DNA of 64,000 nt from Escherichia coli (GTDB lineage Bacteria > Pseudomonadota > Gammaproteobacteria > Enterobacterales > Enterobacteriaceae): the NCBI RefSeq assembly GCF_044324875.1, contig NZ_CP172185.1. One strand, written 5' to 3'. Below, piece by piece: positions 4,733 to 62,207 of this stretch. The translations under genes and the position numbers were made by a program. Position 1 is the first letter of the stretch; each line of letters opens with the position of its first letter. The notes beneath the pieces are model-generated. The model was not told where the DNA came from, searched no databases, and worked only from the letters and a program-made list of their open reading frames with translations.

Positions 4733-6931
4733 TTATCTCCTGCGCAACAGCCTTAACGCATTCGCCGTCACCAGCACCGTCGCACCGGTATCTGCCAGCA
4801 CTGCCAGCCACAGTCCGGTCATCCCTAACAGCGTCGTGACGAGGAAAACGCCTTTCAGCCCCAGCGCAATAGTGATGTTCTGGCGGATATTGGCGTGAGT
4901 GGCGCGTGCCAGTTCAATCATTTGCACCAGGCCGCGCAGGTGGTTATGGGTTAATGCTGCATCGGCGGTTTCCAGCGCCACGTCTGTGCCACTGCCCATT
5001 GCAATCCCGATGGCGGCGGCTTTCATCGCTGGCGCGTCGTTAATACCGTCACCGACCATCGCCAGCGGCGCATGTTGATTCAGTTCGGTTACCGCTTTGA
5101 CTTTATCTTCCGGCAATAGGCCCGCTTTAAACTCCAGCCCCAGTTCCCCGGCAATTGCCGCCGCTGCGCGTGGATTATCGCCGGTGAGGATCACCCCTTT
5201 GACGCCCAGCGCGTTCAGTTCACTGATAGCAGTTGCAGCATCGGCGCGCAGGGTATCCTGCAACGCAATGACACCAAGCACGTCATCATTACGTACTACC
5301 AGCACTACCGTTTGCCCGGCGCTTTCCAGTTCATTAATCAAACCAGCAAATGCAACAGCGGGATGTTTCCCTGCAGCGCATATCAACACGCGCTCACCGT
5401 TAACCTGCGCTTCAATGCCAGACCCAACCAGCGCCCGCTGTGATTGGGCGGCGGGAATGGCGAGTTCAGCAACCTGTGCTTCTCGCACGATGGCTTGCGC
5501 CAGTGGATGCGTCGCGCCTTGCTCGACCGCCGCTGCCAGTGTCAGCAGTTCAGATTCACTAATACCCGTTGCCGGATGAATCGCGGTAACGCGCGGTTTA
5601 CCGACGGTCAGCGTACCGGTTTTATCAAACGCCACCTGGGTAACACGACCTAGTTGTTCCAGCGCCGCACCGCCTTTAATCAACGCCCCACGACGCGCTG
5701 CTGCTGCCAGCCCGGAGGTTATCGCCGCAGGCGTTGAGATAACTAACGCACACGGGCAACCAATCAGCAGCAGCGTCAGCCCTTTATAAATCCACTCTTG
5801 CCAGCTGGCGGCAAACAGCAGCGGCGGCACCAGCGTTACCAGCAGGGCGACGGCCATAATCGCGGGCGTGTAGATACGGCTGAAACGGTCGATAAACCGC
5901 TCAATGGGGGCGCGACGCTCTTCGGCTTCTTCGATCAGTTTCAGAATCCGGTCAATGGCGCTGGCACCCGGTTCTGACAGCACTTCCAGCGTTACCAGAC
6001 GGTCTACGCTGGTGGCTCCAGCAGGGACTTTATTGCCCGTTGCGCGCTCCACCGGAATAGATTCGCCGGTCAGGGCGCTTTCATCAAAACTGGCAAACGG
6101 TGAGAGCAGTTTACCGTCGGCAGGCAAACGTCCACCTGCGGCGACTTCAATCACATCGCCAGGGCGTAGGCTGTTAATCGCCACCTCTTCCCGCTCACCG
6201 TTACGCAGGCGCGTGGCGGTTTCTGGTTTCAGCGCCATTAACGCGCTAACGCCCTGACGCGCGCGGCTGGCGGCCCAGCCTTCCAGTCGTTCACCAATCA
6301 AAAACAGCAGCAACACCATCGCAGCTTCAGCCGTTGCGCCAATAAACAGCGCACCAATAGCGGCTACGCTCATTAACGTTTCAATGGCGAAGTAGCTGCC
6401 GGATTTGATCAGCCGTAATGCCTGACGAGCAATCGGGTACAGCCCAACCAGCGTGGTCGCGATAAACGCCAGTTGCCCGAACGGATGATTAAACTGCTCC
6501 AGACCCCAGCTGATTGCCATCATCACGATTAGCGTAATCAGCGGCAAATTCTCTTTCAGGCGTGATGTTTGCGGTTCGTCGGCGGCCTGTTCATCGCGCA
6601 GGGAATAGCCCGCTTTTTGCACCGCAGATTCAACCTGGGCACGGATGTCATTGTCGGCATCGACCACCAGTTTTTCGGTGGCGAACAACACCTGCACCTG
6701 ATTCACGCCTGCAAGCTGGCGCACGGCATTTTCTACCTTGCGCGCACAGGCGGCGCAGTCCATGCCGCTGACTTTCCAGCTATAGCGGGTGCCGGAGACG
6801 TTTTCAGAGAGAGTTGGCGTGCTGGAACATGCGCCGTCGCAGCAACAGTCGTTGGCGTTCTGTACCGTGGTTAGCGGTTTGAACGCAGCAAATTGAGGGG
6901 CTTTCTTGCCGTGATTGTCAGGAGTCGACAT
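4733..6931 (-). CDS. zntA: Zn/Cd/Pb-exporting P-type ATPase ZntA
   Basis: 732 aa; N-terminal metal-binding GMDCAAC, CPC in TM region, DKTGT phosphorylation motif, GDGINDAP. Confidence 0.95.
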   Translation of the reverse strand: MSTPDNHGKKAPQFAAFKPLTTVQNANDCCCDGACSSTPTLSENVSGTRYSWKVSGMDCAACARKVENAVRQLAGVNQVQVLFATEKLVVDADNDIRAQVESAVQKAGYSLRDEQAADEPQTSRLKENLPLITLIVMMAISWGLEQFNHPFGQLAFIATTLVGLYPIARQALRLIKSGSYFAIETLMSVAAIGALFIGATAEAAMVLLLFLIGERLEGWAASRARQGVSALMALKPETATRLRNGEREEVAINSLRPGDVIEVAAGGRLPADGKLLSPFASFDESALTGESIPVERATGNKVPAGATSVDRLVTLEVLSEPGASAIDRILKLIEEAEERRAPIERFIDRFSRIYTPAIMAVALLVTLVPPLLFAASWQEWIYKGLTLLLIGCPCALVISTPAAITSGLAAAARRGALIKGGAALEQLGRVTQVAFDKTGTLTVGKPRVTAIHPATGISESELLTLAAAVEQGATHPLAQAIVREAQVAELAIPAAQSQRALVGSGIEAQVNGERVLICAAGKHPAVAFAGLINELESAGQTVVLVVRNDDVLGVIALQDTLRADAATAISELNALGVKGVILTGDNPRAAAAIAGELGLEFKAGLLPEDKVKAVTELNQHAPLAMVGDGINDAPAMKAAAIGIAMGSGTDVALETADAALTHNHLRGLVQMIELARATHANIRQNITIALGLKGVFLVTTLLGMTGLWLAVLADTGATVLVTANALRLLRRR

Positions 6932-44585: not shown

Positions 44586-46018
44586 TGCAGGTTTTACATG
44601 TATGTTCAGAGATGTTCCCGCTGCTTAAAACCGGCGGTCTGGCTGATGTTATTGGGGCATTACCCGCAGCACAAATCGCAGATGGCGTTGACGCTCGCGT
44701 ACTGTTGCCTGCATTTCCCGATATTCGCCGTGGCGTGACCGATGCGCAGGTAGTATCCCGACGTGATACCTTCGCCGGACATATCACGCTGTTGTTCGGT
44801 CATTACAACGGGGTTGGCATTTACCTGATTGACGCGCCGCATCTCTATGATCGTCCGGGAAGCCCGTATCACGATACCAACTTATTTGCCTATACCGACA
44901 ACGTATTGCGTTTTGCGCTGCTGGGGTGGGTTGGGGCAGAAATGGCCAGCGGGCTTGACCCATTCTGGCGTCCTGATGTGGTGCATGCGCACGACTGGCA
45001 TGCAGGCCTTGCGCCTGCGTATCTGGCGGCGCGCGGGCGTCCGGCGAAGTCGGTGTTTACTGTGCACAACCTGGCCTATCAAGGCATGTTTTATGCACAT
45101 CACATGAATGACATCCAATTGCCATGGTCATTCTTTAATATTCATGGGCTGGAATTCAACGGACAAATCTCTTTTCTGAAGGCCGGTCTGTACTATGCCG
45201 ATCACATTACGGCAGTCAGTCCAACCTACGCTCGCGAGATCACCGAACCGCAGTTTGCCTACGGTATGGAAGGTCTGTTGCAACAGCGTCACCGTGAAGG
45301 GCGTCTTTCCGGCGTACTGAACGGCGTGGACGAGAAAATCTGGAGTCCAGAGACGGACTTACTGTTGGCCTCGCGTTACACCCGCGATACGTTGGAAGAT
45401 AAAGCGGAAAATAAGCGCCAGTTACAAATCGCAATGGGGCTTAAGGTTGACGATAAAGTGCCGCTTTTTGCAGTGGTGAGCCGTCTGACCAGCCAGAAAG
45501 GTCTCGACCTGGTGCTGGAGGCCTTACCGGGTCTTCTGGAGCAGGGCGGGCAACTGGCGCTACTCGGCGCGGGCGATCCTGTGCTGCAGGAAGGTTTCCT
45601 TGCGGCGGCAGCGGAATACCCCGGCCAGGTGGGCGTTCAGATTGGCTATCACGAAGCATTTTCGCATCGCATTATGGGCGGCGCGGACGTCATTCTGGTG
45701 CCCAGCCGTTTTGAACCGTGCGGCTTAACGCAACTTTATGGATTGAAGTACGGTACGCTGCCGTTAGTGCGGCGCACCGGTGGGCTTGCTGATACGGTTT
45801 CTGATTGTTCTCTTGAGAACCTTGCAGATGGCGTCGCCAGTGGGTTTGTCTTTGAAGATAGTAATGCCTGGTCGCTGTTACGGGCTATTCGACGTGCTTT
45901 TGTACTGTGGTCCCGTCCTTCACTGTGGCGGTTTGTGCAACGTCAGGCTATGGCAATGGATTTTAGCTGGCAGGTCGCGGCGAAGTCGTACCGTGAGCTT
46001 TACTATCGCTTGAAATAG
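44585..46018 (+). CDS. glgA: glycogen synthase GlgA
   Basis: 477 aa; N-terminal KTGGLADV motif. Confidence 0.95.
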
Positions 46019-48484
<2,466 letters not shown>

Positions 48485-48966
48485 GTTCGCAAAGTGGTAA
48501 CTGCCGTGTGTTCTCTTAAAGCTATCGTTAATGGGCACACGGCATTTTTATATCAGATAAACGATATGTCATGACAATTTACAGACAGTATCGATATATA
48601 ATTCATATTTATTAATTTTTAATAATGATTCTCATCTGAGTATGTATCATACAATAAGCATTATAAATAACTAATAAATTATTTATTATATTTATATATT
48701 GCCCCACTCTTCAGTTATCCTGTCTAAAATAAATCTCTTTGTTTTCAAATGACTGTATTTTTATATAAAGTCAATCATTGCGAGCATGGATTCTTTTAGT
48801 TATATTACCAAGCAGCTCATATAATATTTTCAAGCCATTCTATCTCTTATTTTTTCTGTGGTTAACTACACCAGCTTTATTCATTTAAATAATTTGACTT
48901 ATTAAAGCTGAATGTAAAAATAATCGCCAATATTGCTTGGATTTTTTAACAAAAGGAAAGGTATAA

Positions 48967-49671
48967 ATGAAATTCAATCTATCTAATTTATCCGCAGTTT
49001 TACTCGCATCAGGTATGCTGATGTCAACTGTAGTAACCGCTGCGCCAGGCGATGCATCACAATTTGGTGGTGCGGATACAGACTGGAGCACCGTTGATTA
49101 TCCAAAACTCACCGATATGGATAACAACACCGATGCGATGGGCGGAAACATCCGCTTTACTGGTCGTGTGGTTAAAGCGACGTGTAAGGTTGCTACAGAA
49201 TCGAAACAGATTGAAGTGGTACTGCCAGTCGTACCTTCTAACGCTTTCACGGGCATTGATACCGAAGCAACGGGTGCCAGTAACCAGACTGACTTCAACA
49301 TTAAACTGACTGATTGTAGCAATACGGACAGTCAAAATATTGAATTTCGTTTTACTGGCGTAGCAGACGGTGCCAACCAGACGCTTGCCAATGAAGTGGA
49401 AGGAGCTGCTGATGCTGATGGTACTGGCGAAGCGGGAGCTACGGGTGTAGGGATTCGTATTTATTCTAAAAACACGACAACTGATGGCCTGATTAAGCTG
49501 AACACACAAACTCCCCAGGGGAGTAGTTCTTCCGCAGCCTACGTGATTCCTGGCGATGCTGCCACTCATGATTTTACTGCGGCATTTACCGCGGGCTATG
49601 CTCAGAACGGTAGTACCGTTGCACCAGGTCTGGTGAAATCGACGGCAAGTTTCGTCGTGCTGTACGAATAA
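48967..49671 (+). CDS. fimbrial major-subunit-like protein (chaperone-usher pilin), unusually long
   Basis: Signal peptide, Cys pair, C-terminal donor-strand-like FVVLYE; first gene of cluster with RBS AAGGAAAGG. Confidence 0.7.
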   Translation: MKFNLSNLSAVLLASGMLMSTVVTAAPGDASQFGGADTDWSTVDYPKLTDMDNNTDAMGGNIRFTGRVVKATCKVATESKQIEVVLPVVPSNAFTGIDTEATGASNQTDFNIKLTDCSNTDSQNIEFRFTGVADGANQTLANEVEGAADADGTGEAGATGVGIRIYSKNTTTDGLIKLNTQTPQGSSSSAAYVIPGDAATHDFTAAFTAGYAQNGSTVAPGLVKSTASFVVLYE

Positions 49672-49791
49672 TTACAGCAAGATAATTTCAGGTTACAGTT
49701 ACTTGTAACCTGAAATTAATATTACATGTTTATTGTAATAAATAGACACGTATCAGTAATTAAAAATTAGTTTCATCTACAAGGATGCAGT

Positions 49792-50544
49792 ATGAGATGG
49801 ATTTCAAAAAATAAATGTTTTTCGAATAGAAACATTAATTCTTTGCTGAAGACCCAATATGTCATAAGGGCCGGTGCTCTATTTTTACTATCCGCCATAT
49901 CTATCAATGCTATTGCTGCGGGTGGCTTCGGTCTTGGTTCTACGCGTCTGGTTTATCCATCTGACAGTCAGCAAATTACGCTAAGTGTACAGAATGGTGG
50001 GGCTAACACCAGCTATTTAATCCAGTCATGGATTGATGACAATCAAAGCAGTAAAAAAAGTCAGGATTTTGTGGTTACGCCTCCTTTATTTATGTTACCA
50101 ACGCGAAAAGAAGCCTCATTGAGGATAATGTTTATTGGTAAATCACAGTTACCGACTGATCGCGAAACATTATTCTGGATGAATGTGAAAGCGATTCCGC
50201 CAACGGATGAGAAGAATACCCAGAAAAACACGTTACAACTGGCGTTACAAAACAGAATTAAATTATTTTACCGTCCGACTAATTTACCCGTTCAAGCTGG
50301 TAAAGCACGGGATATGCTGCGATTTAAATACGAAGGTAAACAGCTGAGAGTCATTAACCCTTCTCCCTATTATCTGACGGTGACTGGAATCAGGGTGCAA
50401 GGGGCAAAATTACCTAATGCGTTTGTTCCACCGAAAAGTGACGTAACAGTGTCTTCACCAGTGACGTTAGCCGGTGAAATTACTTATCAAACTATCAATG
50501 ATTACGGTGCCACAACGGCCAGGCAAAAGGGAACGTTGCAATAA
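49792..50544 (+). CDS. periplasmic fimbrial chaperone (PapD-like)
   Basis: Motifs TRLVYP, FVVTPPLF, LFWMNVKAIPP, NRIKLFYRP. Confidence 0.85.
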   Translation: MRWISKNKCFSNRNINSLLKTQYVIRAGALFLLSAISINAIAAGGFGLGSTRLVYPSDSQQITLSVQNGGANTSYLIQSWIDDNQSSKKSQDFVVTPPLFMLPTRKEASLRIMFIGKSQLPTDRETLFWMNVKAIPPTDEKNTQKNTLQLALQNRIKLFYRPTNLPVQAGKARDMLRFKYEGKQLRVINPSPYYLTVTGIRVQGAKLPNAFVPPKSDVTVSSPVTLAGEITYQTINDYGATTARQKGTLQ

Positions 50545-50585
50545 ACCTGGAAGATTAGAACGTTAAAGCAACTCAGGTCAGGGAT

Positions 50586-53177
50586 ATGAACCTAAAGCTC
50601 AAAAAACTCGAACACTGGATAGCAAGGCACAAGCAGATGGGACGGAGTATACCGCTCCTGCTCACACTTTTGCCTGCGTGTTCAGTGGCGGGTATGCGCT
50701 TTAACCCTGCATTCCTGTCGGGTGATACAGAAGCTGTTGCTGATTTATCTCGTTTTGAGAAAGGGATGACATATCTACCTGGTAGTTATGAGGTTGAAAT
50801 ATGGGTCAATGATTCGCCTTTGACATCACGTAAGGTTACTTTCAAAGCTGATGAGCAGAATCAGTTGATCCCCTGTTTTTCGCTCGATGAGTTAGTTACT
50901 TTAGGAATTAACAAAAGTGCATTGCCGGAACAGGCGCAAGCAGAGGGAAATAATTGTCTCGATTTACGTATATGGTTCGCAGAAGTTCAATACACTCCTG
51001 AACTGGATGCGCAACGACTCAAACTGACCTTTCCGCAGGCAATATTAAAGCATGAAGCCCGTGGTTATATTCCACCTGAGGAATGGGATAATGGTATCCC
51101 GGCCATTCTTATTAATTATGATTTTTCTGGCAACAGTGATCGTGGAGACTATGCGTCTGATAGTTATTATTTAAATCTCCGTTCAGGTTTAAATTTAGGG
51201 GCGTGGCGTTTTCGCGATTATTCTACATGGAGTCGTTCAGGTAATTCACCGGGTAAAATTGCACATGTGAGTAGTACGTTACAACGAGTAATTATTCCTT
51301 TTAAAAGTGAATTAACACTAGGTGATACCTGGTCTTCATCGGATGTTTTCGACAGTGTGAGTATTCGTGGTGCTAAACTTGAATCCGATGAAAACATGCT
51401 ACCCGATAGCCAAAGTGGTTTTGCCCCCACTGTGCGCGGTATTGCTAAAAGCAATGCTCAGGTAACGATCAAACAAAATGGCTATGTTATTTATCAGACA
51501 TATACTCCACCGGGACCCTTTGAAATCAACGATCTGAACCCTACGTCTTCCGCTGGGGATTTGGAAGTTACGATCAAAGAGTCTGATAATTCCGAAACTA
51601 TCTATACCATTCCTTACGCCGCTGTTCCCATTCTTCAACGCGAAGGGCATATTAAATATTCGGCAACTGCCGGTAAATATCGTAGCAATAGCTATAATCA
51701 AAACAGTCCGAATGTCTTTCAAGGAGATTTGATTTGGGGGTTACCCTGGGATATTACCGCCTACGGAGGGATGCAATACTCAAATAATTATCGGGCAATA
51801 GCACTCGGGCTTGGGTTCAACCTTGGTATGTTTGGTGCGACGTCATTTGATTTAACGCAAGCCAATAGCACGCTTGCCGATGGCAGTAAACATCAAGGGC
51901 AATTGTACCGTTTCCTATATTCAAAATCGTTAGTGCAGACAGGTACGGCTTTTCAGATTATTGGTTATCGCTATTCGACGGAGGGATTTTATTCGTTGAG
52001 TGATACCACATACAAACAAATGTCGGGTACGGTTATCGATCCAGATACCCTTAATGAAAAAGACTATGTTTATAACTGGAATGATTTTTATAATTTACGT
52101 TATAACAAAAGAGGAAAGTTTCAGGCAAATATATCGCAACCATTGGGCGAATATGGCTCTATGTATTTGGCGGCAAGTCAACAAACTTACTGGAATACGA
52201 ATAATAAAGATACCTTGTATCAGGTCGGCTATAATACGAGTGTACATGGGATTTATTTAAATATTGCTTATAATTATAGTAAGTCACCAGGTTCAGATGC
52301 GGACAGAATCTTATCCGTAAATGTCTCATTGCCGATCAGCAATTGGTTATCACTAGCTGTCGATGGGCGTACTGCGACAAATTCTATGACAGCAACTTAT
52401 GGTTATAGTCAGGATAATAGCGGTCATGTAAATCAGTATGCCGGAGTATCTGGATCGCTGCTGGAACAACATAATCTCAACTATAATATTCAACAAAATT
52501 TTGCCAACCAGAATAATGGCGAAAATGGCTCGGTAGGGATAAATTACCGTGGTACATATGGTTCACTAAATTCTGGATACAGCTACGATAATAATGGTAA
52601 CCAGCAATTTAACTATGGTTTAAGTGGTGCCCTGGTTATTCACGAAAATGGTCTCACGTTAAGCCAGCCGTTAGGAGAAACAAATATACTGATAAAAGCA
52701 CCTGGGGCAAACAATGTAAATGTGGAACGCGGAACGGGGGTTAAAACAGACTGGCGTGGCTATGCTGTCGTACCTTATGCCACGGAATATCGGCGTAATA
52801 ATATCTCTTTAGACCCTATGTCTATGAGTATGCATACAGAATTAGATGCTACTACTATGGAAGTGATACCCAGCAAAGGTGCTTTAGTTCGTGCTGAGTT
52901 TAATGCACATGTCGGTATTCGAGGTTTATTTAATGTTCACTATCGTAATAAACCAGTTCCATTTGGTGCGACGGTCAGTGTACCCACTGAGGGGACAACT
53001 CAGATTACAGGAATAGTGGGTGACAGTGGGCAGGTTTATCTCTCCGGTTTGCCTTTACAAGGCATAATAAATATACAGTGGGGAGAAAGTGCTTATCAGC
53101 AATGTCGGGCAAGTTATCAATTACCGAAAAGCGAACTGGATAATGCCATTAGCTATGCAAATCTGGAGTGCCGCTAA
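50586..53177 (+). CDS. outer-membrane fimbrial usher
   Basis: 863 aa, usher-typical size and beta-rich N/Y/S/G content; located after the chaperone gene. Confidence 0.85.
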   Translation: MNLKLKKLEHWIARHKQMGRSIPLLLTLLPACSVAGMRFNPAFLSGDTEAVADLSRFEKGMTYLPGSYEVEIWVNDSPLTSRKVTFKADEQNQLIPCFSLDELVTLGINKSALPEQAQAEGNNCLDLRIWFAEVQYTPELDAQRLKLTFPQAILKHEARGYIPPEEWDNGIPAILINYDFSGNSDRGDYASDSYYLNLRSGLNLGAWRFRDYSTWSRSGNSPGKIAHVSSTLQRVIIPFKSELTLGDTWSSSDVFDSVSIRGAKLESDENMLPDSQSGFAPTVRGIAKSNAQVTIKQNGYVIYQTYTPPGPFEINDLNPTSSAGDLEVTIKESDNSETIYTIPYAAVPILQREGHIKYSATAGKYRSNSYNQNSPNVFQGDLIWGLPWDITAYGGMQYSNNYRAIALGLGFNLGMFGATSFDLTQANSTLADGSKHQGQLYRFLYSKSLVQTGTAFQIIGYRYSTEGFYSLSDTTYKQMSGTVIDPDTLNEKDYVYNWNDFYNLRYNKRGKFQANISQPLGEYGSMYLAASQQTYWNTNNKDTLYQVGYNTSVHGIYLNIAYNYSKSPGSDADRILSVNVSLPISNWLSLAVDGRTATNSMTATYGYSQDNSGHVNQYAGVSGSLLEQHNLNYNIQQNFANQNNGENGSVGINYRGTYGSLNSGYSYDNNGNQQFNYGLSGALVIHENGLTLSQPLGETNILIKAPGANNVNVERGTGVKTDWRGYAVVPYATEYRRNNISLDPMSMSMHTELDATTMEVIPSKGALVRAEFNAHVGIRGLFNVHYRNKPVPFGATVSVPTEGTTQITGIVGDSGQVYLSGLPLQGIINIQWGESAYQQCRASYQLPKSELDNAISYANLECR

Positions 53178-53740
53178 TGAATATATTACAAAAATTTATT
53201 CTATTAATGTTTAGATCATTGTTCATGATGGTGATTTCATATAACGCACTGGCTAACGATACTGTAGTGGTCACATTTACAGGACAATTATTAGCAAAAA
53301 CGTGTGATATTACAACTGGAAGTAAAGACCAGCCAGTAAACATGGGAACTTATGACGTCAATGATTTTTTGAATGTAGGGGATGTTTCTGGCAGCCATAC
53401 ATTTACGATCAATCTGGAAGGATGTCCTACAACAACCAGTACTGTTTATAGTTCAGGAGTAAGTGCTAATGTGCAGTTTACCGGGGATGCTGATGCTATA
53501 AATACCACTTTATTACGCCTTACTTCCAGCGCGGATAGTGCAACTGGAGTGGGCATCGAAATTTTAGACAGTAATGATAAAATTATAGCAATTAATAGTG
53601 AGTCAGGATTCAAAGAGTTAATTTTAAATAATAATGGCGATGCCAGTTTAACCTTTAAACTCCGCTATAAGTCAACTCAGCAAAACGTACATGCGGGACA
53701 GGCGAACGCACTATTGTACTTTGATATAGACTATCAGTGA
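53168..53740 (+). CDS. fimbrial minor subunit
   Basis: ~185 aa, Cys pair (CDIT...CPTT), C-terminal YFDIDYQ. Confidence 0.75.
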   Translation: MPLMNILQKFILLMFRSLFMMVISYNALANDTVVVTFTGQLLAKTCDITTGSKDQPVNMGTYDVNDFLNVGDVSGSHTFTINLEGCPTTTSTVYSSGVSANVQFTGDADAINTTLLRLTSSADSATGVGIEILDSNDKIIAINSESGFKELILNNNGDASLTFKLRYKSTQQNVHAGQANALLYFDIDYQ

Positions 53741-53747
53741 GGTTAAT

Positions 53748-54272
53748 ATGACACGATATTGGAATTTAATTGCCCTATTATTCTCTGTGATATCTATGTC
53801 ATCCATTGCTGATGATACAACACATACAGGTGTTGTACGTATAGAAGGAATCATAACGGCAAAGACTTGTATTGTTGCCGATGAATCTAAAAATTTCACA
53901 GTTAACATGCCTGATGTTCCCAGCTATATGGTGAGAAATTCAGGGAGTGTTACTGAAAAAATTGGTTTCTCTGTAAAGTTAACCCGTTGTGGCAGTGATG
54001 TCAGTCATGCCAATGTCACGTTTGATGGAATACCAGTTAGTGAAGACGCAGCCCTATATAAACTGGAAGAGGGCTCAGTCGATGGGTTAGCACTGGCTAT
54101 TTTTGATAACAACAGACAAAGTATTAGTAATGGTATAAAGAGTACAAGTTATGCCCTTACACCATTGGTAGATAATACATTGCATTTCTCTGCTGCTTAT
54201 AAAGCTATAAAAAATGATGTACAACCAGGAGATGCGAATGCATCAGTTTCCTTTATCGTCACTTATGATTAA
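53748..54272 (+). CDS. fimbrial minor subunit
   Basis: 174 aa, signal peptide, Cys pair, C-terminal SFIVTYD. Confidence 0.75.
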   Translation: MTRYWNLIALLFSVISMSSIADDTTHTGVVRIEGIITAKTCIVADESKNFTVNMPDVPSYMVRNSGSVTEKIGFSVKLTRCGSDVSHANVTFDGIPVSEDAALYKLEEGSVDGLALAIFDNNRQSISNGIKSTSYALTPLVDNTLHFSAAYKAIKNDVQPGDANASVSFIVTYD

Positions 54273-55014
54273 CGTGCTGATATGCATTTTAATATGTTGC
54301 ACAAATGCGCAGGCAGGAGTTGTTGTTGGCGGTACTCGTTTTGTTTACCCAGAAAAGCAGTCATCAATTTCGGTCGAGCTTAAAAATACTGCCAGTAAAG
54401 ATATGCTGGTTAAAATTTCCGTGACACCTGATGATGGACGTCAGTTAAAAGGGACACTGGAATCCCAGCCTTTACTTCCAGATAAGGCGTTTATTGCCAC
54501 ACCACCATTATTGGTACTTAAACAAGATAAAAATACCAAAATAAGAATCAATCGCGTGGGGGGGCAGTTACCTATAGATCGTGAGAGTTTATTTATACTG
54601 AATATTGCAGCGTTACCTGCTCAGGAACAAAACTCACAGCTTAAGAATGAAAATCAACTCCAGGTGGCTGTACGTAATAGGATGAAAATATTTTACCGCC
54701 CAGAGACGTTATCAGGTAATCCACTTGACGCTTATCAACAGTTACGCTGGTCGCGAAAGAATGAAGCTGTCACCGTTTTTAACCCTACGCCCTGGTATGT
54801 GACACTCTATAATTTATCTATTGATGGTAAAAGCATAAATGGTGGCATGGTTGCACCGTTTAGTCATCGCCAACAGGATTGGTGTCAGCGGCAAGGATAT
54901 TGTGAGATTAACTGGCAAACACTAGATCTTTACAATAATGCCTTACCCGTATGGAGCGTAAAATTAAATGTTTTACAAAATAATGTGATGAGTGCAGTAG
55001 CGATACATGGATAA
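54238..55014 (+). CDS. second periplasmic fimbrial chaperone
   Basis: Motifs TRFVYP, FIATPPLL, LFILNIAALPA, NRMKIFYRP; start uncertain (ORF opens at 54214). Confidence 0.8.
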   Translation: MHQFPLSSLMINVLICILICCTNAQAGVVVGGTRFVYPEKQSSISVELKNTASKDMLVKISVTPDDGRQLKGTLESQPLLPDKAFIATPPLLVLKQDKNTKIRINRVGGQLPIDRESLFILNIAALPAQEQNSQLKNENQLQVAVRNRMKIFYRPETLSGNPLDAYQQLRWSRKNEAVTVFNPTPWYVTLYNLSIDGKSINGGMVAPFSHRQQDWCQRQGYCEINWQTLDLYNNALPVWSVKLNVLQNNVMSAVAIHG

Positions 55015-56158
55015 CTGGAGAAGCATGATGCTTACTTATTTTTGGGGAAATATAAAAGCAATTTGTATATTGTTTGTTCTTTTAGTCAGTAGCTGCTATA
55101 ACATAGTATATGCTGAAGATATGGGACGGGATCGCGCCTTTTGTTATCCTGGTGCACCAGGTAATAATACTACTCCTGCGACATTTTCTTATAATTTTGG
55201 TACGGTAATTGTCTCAGATGTTAATAATAATTCGCCTGGGACAGTATTACCCTCGCAGGACTGGAAAATAGGGCATTATAAGGCTTATTGTAATTCTCTG
55301 GATGATTATGAGGTTTATTTTTCTGGTGTTTCTGGGATTGATCCGTCAGGAGCGTCTGGTGATCATCAGGGGAGCGATATATTTATTCCTTTGACTCATG
55401 AAATATCTGTCTCGACACATGTAAAGCTCTATAATAAAAATGGCACAATGACAGATAAGGCAGTACCTTTTGACAACTATAGCACCAATTATCCAGCAGA
55501 CAGAAGTAAACCATCAAGTTGGGCCTCAGGAACAGAAGGTTATATAAAAATCAGACTTGATAAAAAAATAATATCCGATATATCAATAAATAACGTATTG
55601 CTGGTTTCTTTGTATGTCAGCCAGTTTCCAACAGAGCACGGACCAATTCCAGTATTTAATGCTTATATTGGCAACTTAAATATTGAAGTTCCACAAGGTT
55701 GCACAATTAATGAGGGAACTAGTTTTACCGTTAATATGCCGGATGTCTGGGCCAGCGAATTAAGTCGGGCTGGTGCTGGAGTGAAGCCCACGGGCGTTTC
55801 TCCAGTGGCAACCACTATTCCGATAAACTGTACGAACAAAGATATTGATGCCGTAATGACGCTGGTTTTTGATGGCAATATTTCATCAACGAGAGATGTT
55901 AATGGTCGGCAAAGCATTATTCAGGCGGAGGATAACCCCGACGTTGGTATTATGATTATGGATAGCCAACAGGAATCCGTAGACTTGAACGCTCTTGCTG
56001 CGCATGTTGGTGTGCCATTTAAGTTAGTTGAAAACCGGGCTGAGTCAGCTCAGACGGCAGATGTGACTTTTCTGTCTCTCCCTGTAAGTACCACAGGGCG
56101 ACGCCCTGCTGCGGGTCGTTATAATGCCCTGGCTGTTTTGCGGGTGGAATACCAGTGA
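55007..56158 (+). CDS. putative fimbrial tip adhesin (two-domain pilin-like protein)
   Basis: 383 aa, signal peptide, C-terminal pilin-like domain ending VLRVEYQ; last gene of cluster. Confidence 0.65.
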   Translation: MDNWRSMMLTYFWGNIKAICILFVLLVSSCYNIVYAEDMGRDRAFCYPGAPGNNTTPATFSYNFGTVIVSDVNNNSPGTVLPSQDWKIGHYKAYCNSLDDYEVYFSGVSGIDPSGASGDHQGSDIFIPLTHEISVSTHVKLYNKNGTMTDKAVPFDNYSTNYPADRSKPSSWASGTEGYIKIRLDKKIISDISINNVLLVSLYVSQFPTEHGPIPVFNAYIGNLNIEVPQGCTINEGTSFTVNMPDVWASELSRAGAGVKPTGVSPVATTIPINCTNKDIDAVMTLVFDGNISSTRDVNGRQSIIQAEDNPDVGIMIMDSQQESVDLNALAAHVGVPFKLVENRAESAQTADVTFLSLPVSTTGRRPAAGRYNALAVLRVEYQ

Positions 56159-56571
56159 TGTGTGAGTCAGTGCAGAATCGGATTAGCCCGTTTTTAGCCA
56201 TCGGTAGGGTAAAGTTTGATGGAAAATATGGGTTATGTGCCGATGTATCCCACAATGAAATAACCCTCGAGGGAAAGGAATCAGCGCGATGAACAAATTC
56301 ACGGTGTTTTGCTGCTAGGTGTGGTATTTCTCGGCTTTATTATTGTACCGTTCTTGATATGGCCGACGGTGGTTGCGCTGGCTGCTTGTATTATTACGCT
56401 GAGTTTTCTGGGGAGATACTGTTCTCTATCCCGCTCATGATCAGGCGTATTTCACTTCTGGAATTACAACTTTGGTTATCGGTTGTATATGCGCTTTGTC
56501 CATGCCGGATGCGACGTGAACGTCTTATTGGTCTACAAAATCATGCAAATTCAATATATTGCATAAACCAC

Positions 56572-57565
<994 letters not shown>

Positions 57566-57643
57566 TCACGGATTGGCATCGAAGTCCGATCAGCGATTCG
57601 CATCCATTCGATCAACCGGGAACTTAACTTTTTCTACCGCTTT

Positions 57644-58399
57644 TTAACGCGTTTTTTCGCTGCTTTCCACTACCGGGGGATTTTTCCTCAGTGACTCTCC
57701 CTGAAGGACCACTCGGTGTGAGTTATGTACCAGTCTGTCCAGGATGGCATCTGCTGTTGTTGGGTTCTCCATCAGACCATGCCATTTATCTACCGGGAAC
57801 TGGCTTACCACTATCGTGCTGCTTTGTCCGTAACGATCCTCTATGAGCTCCAGAAGGTCATTACACTGGGCGTTACTTAACTGTTCCAGCCCCAGATCGT
57901 CCAGGATTAGAACCTGTATTTTTTGCAACTGTTTCAGATATTTCAGCCAGCTGCCATCAACACGTCCCTGAGCCAGTTGTTCCAGTAATCGCCCGGTTCT
58001 ACAGTACCGGACGCTGTGTTTCTGTCGACATGCCTGTTCGCCCAGCGCATTGGCTATCCAGCTCTTGCCACATCCTGTCGGACCGGTTATCAGCAGGTTT
58101 TTCCTGTGGGTTATGTAGTGGCCGTTCAGCAGTTCTCTCATCTGTTCAGCCCGCAGACCTCTTGAGGCCGGATAGCGCAGCCCTTCCGGTGTTGCCTGGT
58201 ATTTCAGGCCGGCATTTTTTCTCAACCGTGCCACACGGCTGTTTTCCCTGCTCAGAAGCTCGTCATCAACCAGCAGCGTCAGCCTTTCCTCGAACGACAG
58301 TTCGTCGTAGGTCTGAGGCGTTTCCCGCTGCCGTATCAGGCTCCCGGCCATCGCCGGGAGTTTCAGTTGGGTCAGTTTGTTTAACAGGTTATCACTCAT
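57644..58399 (-). CDS. istB: IS21-family helper ATPase IstB
   Basis: Start at MSDNLLNKL; Walker A GPTGCGKS, Walker B VLILDDLG. Confidence 0.85.
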   Translation of the reverse strand: MSDNLLNKLTQLKLPAMAGSLIRQRETPQTYDELSFEERLTLLVDDELLSRENSRVARLRKNAGLKYQATPEGLRYPASRGLRAEQMRELLNGHYITHRKNLLITGPTGCGKSWIANALGEQACRQKHSVRYCRTGRLLEQLAQGRVDGSWLKYLKQLQKIQVLILDDLGLEQLSNAQCNDLLELIEDRYGQSSTIVVSQFPVDKWHGLMENPTTADAILDRLVHNSHRVVLQGESLRKNPPVVESSEKTR

Positions 58400-58415
58400 A
58401 CTGTTGTTCCTTCTG

Positions 58416-59951
58416 TCAGTGGTAGTAGCCCGGACCACGCAGGTTTTCATGCTCTGAAGCATATGCCGGATGTTGTTCGCCCTGGCGGGATAATGGAAGC
58501 TCCAGGTTCTCCCGATGGTGACGCAGCAGATTGTCGATAAAGCGTCTGTCAGGGGCGTTATAGTGCAGGGCAACGTAACAGGCCTTTTCCAGCCGTTCCG
58601 GGCCGTATTTTTTCTGAAGTGCCAGCAGCCCCAGAACTGCACGATAAGCCAGTTCCGGATGGGGTTTTGCCTTCAGCATGGATTCAACCACCCGGCCTGT
58701 GGACGGGCCCGTACGTTTTCCCTGCTCGATCAGGCGTTCCGGTGTCCATGTCCCGTGCTGCCGGTGGCGCTCTGGCATGTGAAGCGGATTGGTTGTGTGT
58801 TTATATTCATGTGTGCTGCGCGGATGTTGCGCCACACACTGCCCCTTGTGCCAGAGCTGTACCACCGACTGCCCCGCCTTCAGTGACAGACGCTGACCGA
58901 CCAGTTCGTGTGGAACGGAGTACCAGTGACGGGCATATTCAACGTGGTAGTCAGGGCCAACCTTCACAGCTTTGTATTCCGTGTATTCATAAGGTGCCAG
59001 AGGCAGCGGAGAGAGTGCTGGCGCATCCAGTATGCGGAAGCGTTCTGCACGGGTTTGATTGCCGTACCCCTTCATTGGCCGGTTATTCATGTCTGTCAGT
59101 AACTCCCTAAGGCGCGCATTCAGCGCCCTGAGCGTGTGGAAGGTTTCATTACGGATGCGGGCAAGAAGCCATCGTTCAACGATGAGGACGCCGTTTTCTG
59201 CTTTTGGTTTATCTTTAGGTTTGCGTGGTCGGGCCGGGATGATAACCGTGCCATAGTGCTCAGCCAGTGCCTGATAACTGTCGTTGATGACAGGCTCATA
59301 TCGATCGGCCTTTTTCACTGCGCTTCTGAGGTTATCGGGGATGAGCAGCTTCGGTACGCCGCCCAGGAAGGTCAGGCAACGGCTGTGGGCATTTAACCAT
59401 GACATCATGTCCTGACCTTCGCACGCTTCAACGTAGGTATAGTTGGACGCCCCCATTACGGCCACGAAGATTGCCACGCGGCGTATCTCACCGGTGTCCG
59501 GATTAATAACAGGAACCGTAGGACCACAGAAGTCGATAAAAAGCTTTTCGCCGGCACGATGCTCCTGGCGCATGGAGAGACGTCGCGTTTTTTTCCACTC
59601 CCGGTAGCAACGGCAGAAGTGCGAGTATCCCATCGCTTTGTTACCCGCCTGTGCCTTGTATTCCATCCACAACAGTTGCCGCGTCACACCTGGTTTTCTC
59701 ATTTCCGTATCGAAGTACAACATGTCAGGCATTACAAGCTCTGATGCAAAGGTGTCTTTGGGCGGAAAAATGAGTTTCTCCAGCGTGTCATGGGATATAT
59801 CAGCAGGTAATGGCCATGACAGAGAAGAGGCTTTGAAGCGGGCAAGAACCTCAAAAACGGTTGAGGCGCTGATGTGTAACGTCAGTCCGATACAACGGTT
59901 AGTCAGCTTCTTGTCGAACTTGAGCTGAAGGATCTTAAAACAGGTTTCCAT
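58416..59951 (-). CDS. istA: IS21-family transposase IstA
   Basis: N-terminal HTH then DDE integrase core; start uncertain (ORF opens at 60062). Confidence 0.8.
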   Translation of the reverse strand: METCFKILQLKFDKKLTNRCIGLTLHISASTVFEVLARFKASSLSWPLPADISHDTLEKLIFPPKDTFASELVMPDMLYFDTEMRKPGVTRQLLWMEYKAQAGNKAMGYSHFCRCYREWKKTRRLSMRQEHRAGEKLFIDFCGPTVPVINPDTGEIRRVAIFVAVMGASNYTYVEACEGQDMMSWLNAHSRCLTFLGGVPKLLIPDNLRSAVKKADRYEPVINDSYQALAEHYGTVIIPARPRKPKDKPKAENGVLIVERWLLARIRNETFHTLRALNARLRELLTDMNNRPMKGYGNQTRAERFRILDAPALSPLPLAPYEYTEYKAVKVGPDYHVEYARHWYSVPHELVGQRLSLKAGQSVVQLWHKGQCVAQHPRSTHEYKHTTNPLHMPERHRQHGTWTPERLIEQGKRTGPSTGRVVESMLKAKPHPELAYRAVLGLLALQKKYGPERLEKACYVALHYNAPDRRFIDNLLRHHRENLELPLSRQGEQHPAYASEHENLRGPGYYH

Positions 59952-60169
59952 AGTGCTCCTGGATTTTCTCTTTCTGGACATTGACGTCTCCACTGGTTTA
60001 AACACGGCAATGGAGACTGTGGTGAAAAGAGTTAATTCCCGGAGTGACTGGCAGGATGCCAATCAATGATCGGAAGCATGCCAAATCGTGATCGATTGTG
60101 ATGCCAAACTGTGATCGGAGATGGATGCCAAATCATGATCGATTCGAATGCCAAACTGCGATCGATTCA

Positions 60170-60522
<353 letters not shown>

Positions 60523-60590
60523 AGGCAGTTTTTTTGTTTATCATCAGTCTCAGGTCAGATTGAAATCTGACCTGACCACCTTACGTTAAA

Positions 60591-62096
60591 TCACGAAGCC
60601 AGCGATAACCTCTGCTGCGTATACTCCACTAGCCACTGACTCACACGAGATTGTTGATCCGCATTCAGCCACATGCCTTGTTTTGTGCGACGCCACAGGG
60701 CATCGTCGGCGCGACGGACCCATTCGTGATCCACCAGGTATTTCAGTTCCGCTTCGTAGAACTCATGACCGAAATCCTCCCCGAGGTCGCTTATCGCTCC
60801 CGCATTGCAGAGCAGCAGCTCGCTGTTGCTGCCGTAAGTGCGCGCGTAGTGACGTGCCAGCGATTCGGTCAGGAATGGGTAACGACGGCGCAGACGAGCT
60901 GCGTAATCGTCGCGGTCGCCTTCAATGGCACCACCCGGCAGCACGCTCTCTTTCGTCCATGCCGGGCCAATGCCCTGATAATACGGCGTCAGTTTTTCCA
61001 GCGCATGTTCCGCCAGTTTGCGGTAGGTGGTCAACTTACCGCCGAATACCGACAGCAGCGGCGCTTTGCCGTTTTCATCATGGATATCAAGGGTGTAATC
61101 ACGAGTGATAGCCTGCGGCGAATCGGACTCATCATCACACAGCGGACGCACGCCGGAGTAGGTCCAGACGATATCGTCCCGGCTTAACTGCTTTTTAAAG
61201 TGCGTGTTATACACTTTCAGCAGGTAATTGATTTCACTCTCTTCAATTTTTACTGCTTTTGGATCACCTTTGTATTCCACATCGGTGGTGCCGATGATGG
61301 AAAACTCGTCCATCCACGGGATCACGAAGACAATACGTTTATCTTCGTTTTGCAGAATGTAGGCCTGCTTTTGTGTATGCACACGCGGCACCACAATATG
61401 GCTGCCTTTGATCAGGCGAATGCCATAAGGTGAGGGTAGATGCATCCCGTCGTCGAAGAACTGCTTCACCCACGGGCCGGTGGCGTTCACGAGGCCGCGC
61501 GCTTGCCAGCTATATTTTTTGCCGGTATCGATATCTTCCGCTTCCACAATCCACAGGCCGTTTTCGCGGCGAGCAGAAGTGGCACGAGTACGGGTAAGCA
61601 CTTCACCGCCTTTACGCACCACCATCTGGGCGTTGGCGAGTACCAGACGGGCGTCGTCTACCCAACAGTCGGAATATTCGAATCCGCGCTTAATTTCCGG
61701 TTTTAACACTGAATTTGCGCCAAAACGCAAACCGGTTGATCCCGGTAGGCTGGTGCGTTTACCCAGATGATCGTACATAAACAGACCAATCCGAATCATC
61801 CACGCCGGGCGCAGATGCGGACGATGCGGCAGGCGAAAACGCATCGGGAAGGCGATATGCGGGGCCATTTTCAGTAGCACTTCACGTTCAGCCAGCGCCT
61901 CGCTGACCAGGCGGAATTCATAGTGCTCAAGGTAGCGCAGGCCACCGTGAATGAGTTTTGAACTGGCGGAAGAGGTCGCGCAAGCGAGATCCTGCGCCTC
62001 CAGCATCAGCACGGATAAACCGCGTCCAGCGGCGTCTGCCGCGATACCAGCACCATTGATGCCGCCACCTATCACAATCAGATCTTTGGTTTCCAT
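60591..62096 (-). CDS. glpD: aerobic glycerol-3-phosphate dehydrogenase GlpD
   Basis: Start at METKDLIVIGGGINGAGIA (FAD motif); ORF opens at 62111. Confidence 0.95.
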   Translation of the reverse strand: METKDLIVIGGGINGAGIAADAAGRGLSVLMLEAQDLACATSSASSKLIHGGLRYLEHYEFRLVSEALAEREVLLKMAPHIAFPMRFRLPHRPHLRPAWMIRIGLFMYDHLGKRTSLPGSTGLRFGANSVLKPEIKRGFEYSDCWVDDARLVLANAQMVVRKGGEVLTRTRATSARRENGLWIVEAEDIDTGKKYSWQARGLVNATGPWVKQFFDDGMHLPSPYGIRLIKGSHIVVPRVHTQKQAYILQNEDKRIVFVIPWMDEFSIIGTTDVEYKGDPKAVKIEESEINYLLKVYNTHFKKQLSRDDIVWTYSGVRPLCDDESDSPQAITRDYTLDIHDENGKAPLLSVFGGKLTTYRKLAEHALEKLTPYYQGIGPAWTKESVLPGGAIEGDRDDYAARLRRRYPFLTESLARHYARTYGSNSELLLCNAGAISDLGEDFGHEFYEAELKYLVDHEWVRRADDALWRRTKQGMWLNADQQSRVSQWLVEYTQQRLSLAS

Positions 62097-62207
62097 GCTG
62101 CCCTCATTCACTTTCGTTAAAGCTCATAAATGTTCGTTATCGAACATATTAGCAAAGAATCGCGCTTTAGGTAACATTGAAAAAACATTTTAGAGTGATA
62201 TGTATAA

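Follow-up and report, generated by a model that had tools for sequence, protein, structure and literature searches.

The auf fimbrial operon of ExPEC has been placed in the glpD..glgP genomic region (PMC12928451), and two further described elements bear on that region here, the REP, whose canonical sequence is quoted as TGCCGGATGCGGCGTAAACGCCTTATCCGGCCTAC, and the insertion sequence IS621, whose natural target is ATCAGGCCTAC with a CT core (both PMC11208160). Our literature search for yzgL, the K-12 gene of this interval, returned only mentions in gene lists. The intact interval, as found in O157:H7 FRIK944 and in XJW9B277, consists of glgP, g1 (502 aa), g2 (330 aa), g3 (200 aa) and glpD. Gene g1 encodes a multi-pass membrane protein with a PstS-like periplasmic-binding domain and a long hydrophobic N-terminal half, and g2 a PstS-like lipoprotein with a lipoprotein-type signal at its start (MNKFTGVLLLGTALLAGC); intact g1 and g2 both match the Pfam family PBP_like_2 (PstS-like; PF12849) with E values of 1e-29 to 1e-30. 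The 200-aa g3 product is a hypothetical membrane protein (WP_000981061/WP_000981056) for which no Pfam, NCBIfam or PADLOC family was found. Homologues of g3 were seen only in Escherichia (E. coli, E. albertii, E. marmotae and other Escherichia species), all of them annotated as hypothetical, and the gene lies beside the glpD 3' spacer in O157, XJW9B277, EV36, E. marmotae and E. albertii. Some 900 complete E. coli genomes have an undisrupted g1-g2-g3 cluster in this interval, as do E. marmotae, with the order glgA-glgP-g1-g2-g3-glpD, and E. albertii, with g1-g2, four genes, g3-glpD (the locus fetched starts inside g1).

The window analysed here is a 64,000-nucleotide stretch of E. coli DNA from contig NZ_CP172185.1. 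Its open reading frames include glgP (46037–48484), a seven-gene chaperone-usher fimbrial operon on the plus strand (48967–56158, recognised from its ORFs and their Pfam Fimbrial matches) and glpD on the minus strand (60591–62111). An IS621 composite occupies 56576–60501 on the minus strand, its IS110-family transposase gene being split by an IS21-type istAB pair, and comparison with strains KE55 and 2012C-4221 identifies 60502–60590 as the rest of the REP that IS621 has cut, the second of two, together with the glpD 3' flank. Between the operon and the IS621 junction lie 417 bp (56159–56575) which, judged by alignment, are very probably a non-functional deletion scar of the three-gene cluster g1-g2-g3 together with a conserved spacer. 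A megablast search of 56159–56680 against 5426 complete E. coli genomes showed that the 417-bp stretch is present at 99–100% identity in a discrete class of about 227–228 genomes, and about 227 of the 5426 have it without any IS between the fimbrial operon and glpD. KE55, for example, has the order glgP, fimbrial operon, remnant stretch, glpD and carries no IS there, and in 2012C-4221 an intact IS621 comes after the stretch.

The fimbrial genes encode, in the auf order, a subunit, a chaperone, an usher, two subunits, a chaperone and a tip protein; by this gene order, aufABCDEFG, and by its site between glgP and glpD, the seven-gene operon is of the auf type. Window positions 46000–56188 are collinear with glgP and the fimbrial operon of EV36 at 79.5% nucleotide identity overall (glgP included), and the auf-type region itself, 48494–56188, is about 75–80% identical in DNA to the EV36 allele (L007 2500–10169). 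The island as a whole spans about 48494–56188, since homology with K-12 stops on its left at 48493, nine bases past the glgP stop codon, and homology with EV36 stops on its right at 56188; positions 56159–56188 (plus strand) are thus the 3' flank of the island, held in common with the EV36-type auf locus. The auf variant of the window and that of EV36 both meet g1 at one and the same position (XJW9B277 3877/3878); this common breakpoint points to one old insertion event, in which auf DNA took the place of the glgP terminator and about 1.44 kb of g1. The sequence-only reading had described a residual native spacer at 56159–56529 that lies between the fimbrial island and the IS element and delimits the island on one side. 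Genome comparisons bear out the location between glgP with its fimbrial operon and glpD, and the start of the stretch stands, but 56529 falls in the middle of a REP and the stretch continues to 56575. It does mark the right side of the island, with the boundary fixed at its very start (56188/56190) and not at the onset of K-12 homology. We note that a GC-rich inverted repeat of the island (gccgtgtg...cacacggc, then T's) at 48485–48560 replaces the glgP terminator hairpin of the K-12/O157 type, that EV36 carries a related inverted repeat, and that in EV36 aufG stands ~56 bp farther from the g1 remnant.

The stretch to the right of the island edge can be divided into segments by alignment with the intact XJW9B277 locus (L006), and the homologies, breakpoints and frameshifts given here are direct observations. 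Its first 74 bp (56190–56263, plus strand) are a decayed g1 3' end, about 80% identical in nucleotides to L006 3877–3949, which reads F*PSVG*SLMENMGYVPMYPTMK* against the intact ...FLTPQGQSLVEDVGYVPLYPTME* and so contains internal stops. The g1-g2 intergenic spacer follows (56264–56288, plus strand, aligned with L006 3950–3974) and includes the Shine-Dalgarno-like sequence GGAAAGGAA; after it come the first ~10 codons of g2 (56289 to ~56320, plus strand). The g1-end and g2-start remnants together show about 80% nucleotide identity over 131 columns to L006 3877–4006; both are too short for Pfam scoring and were assigned by nucleotide alignment. Intact g2 begins MNKFTGVLLLG..., and a single base missing at 56302/56303 turns the remnant, read from the ATG at 56289, into MNKFTVFCC*. 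The possibility that MNKFT... is a divergent g3 start was considered and rejected, as the ATG and the preceding bases to ...CTAGG match the g2 start at ~46/51. The junction with g3 lies within 56320–56326, where five bases (56321–56325) could be assigned to neither gene, and the next segment (~56326–56497, plus strand) is the 5' third of g3, residues ~12–71, at 87% nucleotide identity to L006 ~4996–5174. If the first missing base is put back, the reading frame runs from the g2 start into this g3 piece, which lacks a single base of its own near 56409 (a -1 frameshift); a 43-aa hydrophobic ORF with a TTG start runs from 56309 to 56440. The g3 homology ends at a deletion junction with a lone copy of GCGCTTT (56491–56497), to which both flanks align. 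In the intact locus this 7-bp sequence occurs twice, at L005/L006 5168–5174 and 5610–5616, which are the two deletion endpoints, and the 442 bp absent from the window comprise the 3' two-thirds of g3 (residues ~72–200) and 40 bp downstream. The remaining 56498–56575 are the conserved glpD-proximal spacer, 84–91% identical to K-12, O157 and XJW9B277.

When the two missing bases are restored, the translation is 81% identical in amino acids to the g3 product over 63 residues (BLASTP E 3e-23), and the remnant DNA matches the real gene of strain XJW9B277 with a blastn E of 8e-59; because both the DNA and the corrected translation match an intact gene of other E. coli, the ORF fragments are not due to chance. 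A 'distant' blastn search with 56159–56460 found that 56324–56460 matches a 'hypothetical protein' gene in 4058/5426 genomes, always adjoining glpD. The g3 piece has the homology, the position by the glpD 3' spacer and the disrupted and truncated frame of a pseudogene of a WP_000981056-like gene. The remnant is ordinary genome decay, its pseudogene status already flagged in RefSeq, where window 56297–56511 is labelled 'hypothetical protein; frameshifted; incomplete; missing C-terminus'.

The conserved spacer is made up of a degenerate REP (56503–56536), an inter-REP motif (56537–56568) and the beginning of a second REP, which IS621 interrupts. The first REP, TGCCGGATGCGACGTGAACGTCTTATTGGTCTAC, agrees with the canonical sequence at 29/35 positions; by inspection its inner stem GACG/CGTC pairs and its outer stem, GCCGGAT versus ATTGGTC, does not, and the K-12 copy at this site is less degenerate. 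The empty site of KE55 reads ...cacgtaggcctgataagcgtagcgcatcaggc; there the second REP, read on the opposite strand, matches GCCTGATGCGCTACGCTTATCAGGCCTACG exactly, and the REP pair is inverted. IS621 is a bridge-RNA recombinase element. It sits at the CT core of its target sequence in the second REP, the gtaggcctgat of the KE55 empty site being the reverse complement of that target, and it is flanked by AG on both sides. This 1280-bp IS110-family element is, after removal of the element nested in it, identical at 1276/1280 positions to the intact copy of 2012C-4221. The nested element (57545–60185, 2641 bp) is IS21-like and of the ISSso4 family, is bounded by a 5-bp target duplication, TCGTG, and inactivates IS621; the nested IS621/ISSso4-family junction was found in none of the 5426 complete E. 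coli genomes. The insertion cuts the IS621 recombinase gene after ~43 codons and separates these, with the non-coding end that precedes them, from the remainder of the gene. The only Rfam match, to the ES036 (CssrF) sRNA at 56537–56580, scored below threshold (29 bits against a gathering score of 37.6, E 0.009) and was not taken as a member of that family; it covers the inter-REP motif and crosses the IS621 junction, and the resemblance is probably repeat-derived.

Four haplotypes of this interval are seen among the 5426 complete genomes: the K-12-type yzgL junction in 1262, intact g2 in 885–901, the EV36-type pair of hypothetical genes in 3015 and the window-type remnant in 227–228. The counts add up to roughly all 5426, and because some part of g1-g3 persists in every haplotype, the most parsimonious reading makes the cluster ancestral and the K-12 'spacer' and the window stretch both derived from it. 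No intermediate haplotype, that is, this auf variant with an intact g2 or g3, was found among these genomes, so the order of events is not directly observed, and we infer it from the segments. The ancestral Escherichia glgP-glpD interval would have held g1, g2 and g3, followed by the REP-pair spacer, and the auf-type fimbrial operon would have replaced the DNA that began just past the glgP stop codon and reached into g1, sparing only the last 74 bp of that gene. A deletion of ~990 bp may then have joined g2 codon ~10 in frame to g3 codon ~11; restoring the first missing base puts the g2 start in frame with g3, which suggests that loss of the g2 body was originally an in-frame fusion. Loss of g2 through homologous recombination between g1 and g2 at their paralogous 3' ends was considered and rejected, since the kept junction is g1-end/g2-start and not g2-end/g3-start. 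Two single-base deletions and point mutations would have broken the reading frames, and a 442-bp deletion between the GCGCTTT repeats, presumably microhomology-mediated, would have removed the rest of g3 and joined the gene to the conserved spacer. Later, IS621 would have entered the second REP and the ISSso4-family element would in turn have entered IS621.

The sequence-only reading took the stretch for the decayed ancestral intergenic region in which K-12 has yzgL. The features on which it dwelt are present: the hydrophobic ORF fragments broken by stops are MNKFTVFCC*, the 43-aa ORF and a third-frame ...EILFSIPLMIRRISLLELQLWLSVVYAL... continuation, and the degenerate REP-like sequence is real. 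It was also right that the DNA is residual and pre-dates the island, but 56190–56497 are the remains of three coding genes, not decayed intergenic DNA. That the whole stretch is a decayed K-12-type glgP-glpD intergenic region with ORF fragments of yzgL is scarcely credible. When the MG1655 glpD-yzgL-glgP interval was aligned to the window by blastn with a short word size and lenient scoring, right-hand homology was confined to 56461–56575, about a quarter of the stretch (84% over 119 columns), and was strong only from 56491. These last ~115 bp and the common locus speak for a K-12-type spacer, and since some similarity to the K-12 glgP-glpD spacer exists, the refuting condition that the sequence-only reading had named for itself, a complete lack of it, does not formally apply; yet only ~69 bp of the 371 bp originally delimited can be aligned with K-12, convincingly only from 56491, and 56159–56460 have no K-12 spacer counterpart by lenient blastn, so that for this part the reading is already refuted. 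Nor does the stretch correspond to yzgL, the frameshift-corrected translation showing no similarity to YzgL (BLASTP E 0.81). K-12 spacer positions 1–396 align with XJW9B277 2271–2665 (the end of glgP, its terminator and ~225 nt from the start of g1) and positions 389–701 with XJW9B277 5510–5824 (the last ~60 nt of g3 and the spacer); YzgL residues 1–72 correspond to g1 residues 2–73, and its C-terminus to the g3 3' end in another frame, both of which are absent from the window. By these alignments yzgL (b3427; L003 4725–5006) is a fusion ORF across a ~2.85-kb deletion in the same cluster, and the window and yzgL fail to align because yzgL keeps exactly the cluster parts that the window has lost. 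A deletion scar of g1-g2-g3 explains the ORF fragments fully, as frame-broken pieces of g2 and g3, and this bears equally on the very improbable idea that the remnant is still useful, either through a small hydrophobic peptide (the 43-aa ORF or the 9-aa MNKFTVFCC leader) or as the end of the fimbrial-operon transcript. The ATG at 56289 still has its Shine-Dalgarno-like sequence in front of it, g2::g3 becomes a single frame when one base is restored, a hint of past expression, and the stretch is 99–100% conserved in ~228 genomes, but that conservation may merely reflect recent common ancestry, and the 43-aa ORF begins with TTG and has no evident ribosome-binding site. A promoter and terminator scan of 56000–56700 gave nothing above shuffled expectation inside 56159–56575, and Rfam (E-value mode, 55900–60700) returned no family at threshold; the frame breaks suggest that the remnant is non-functional.

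How the scar reached this lineage is a separate matter. It is possible, if on balance doubtful, that the remnants, rather than decaying in place in the ancestors of this strain, were acquired from a different Escherichia lineage in a single haplotype block with the divergent auf allele, homologous recombination having taken place through glgP and glpD. An auf region only ~75–80% identical to the EV36 type that nevertheless shares its g1 breakpoint suggests one old insertion followed by allele exchange, and the haplotype is a discrete class without intermediates, but no donor lineage has been identified. Such a transfer concerns origin and is compatible with the identity of the sequence as a deletion scar. 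A broader proposal, which we consider improbable, is that the glgP-glpD interval is an Escherichia-specific cassette site in which g1, g2 and g3 form an uncharacterised envelope system with cargo swapped between g2 and g3, the g2::g3 of the window then being a once-expressed chimera and not a random scar. The genes at the site between g2 and g3 vary, with none in O157, two unrelated ones in the EV36 type and four in E. albertii. The two EV36-type genes of E. coli (L004 2488–3968) encode 236 and 255 aa and the four of E. albertii (L008 2515–5998) 375, 236, 262 and 258 aa; no family in Pfam, NCBIfam or PADLOC was found for the cargo genes of either.

With the stretch read as a deletion scar, this variable E. 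coli locus resolves cleanly into four haplotypes, a description that helps annotation and typing and is without mechanistic significance. Compared with the intact cluster of O157:H7, HS and XJW9B277, every segment of 56190–56575 aligns at 76–92% nucleotide identity in the same order and orientation, but the window is without ~1.44 kb of g1, ~0.99 kb of g2 and 442 bp of g3 and downstream sequence, and it also has frameshifts and stops. It resembles the ExPEC auf island and the EV36-type locus in the seven-gene order, the chromosomal site and the junction with the g1 3' end, and differs from the EV36 type in an auf allele that is ~20–25% divergent in DNA; beyond the remnant of the g1 3' end, which both have, the EV36 type continues with an unrelated pair of hypothetical genes and a complete g3, the window with the g2::g3 remnant. 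The inverted REP pair, parted by a short motif and with the IS621 target in its second member, is like other REP/BIME elements, whereas the first REP is degenerate relative to the canonical sequence and its outer stem no longer pairs. With the K-12 yzgL spacer the window has in common the locus, a derivation from leftovers of the same cluster and the glpD-proximal REP-pair spacer. The K-12 spacer with yzgL would itself have arisen by deletion and would not represent the ancestral reference state. What survives in K-12 is the glgP terminator, ~73 codons from the start of g1 and the final ~60 nt of g3; what survives in the window is the 3' end of g1, the start of g2 and codons ~12–71 of g3, coding remnants that neither overlap nor resemble those of K-12.
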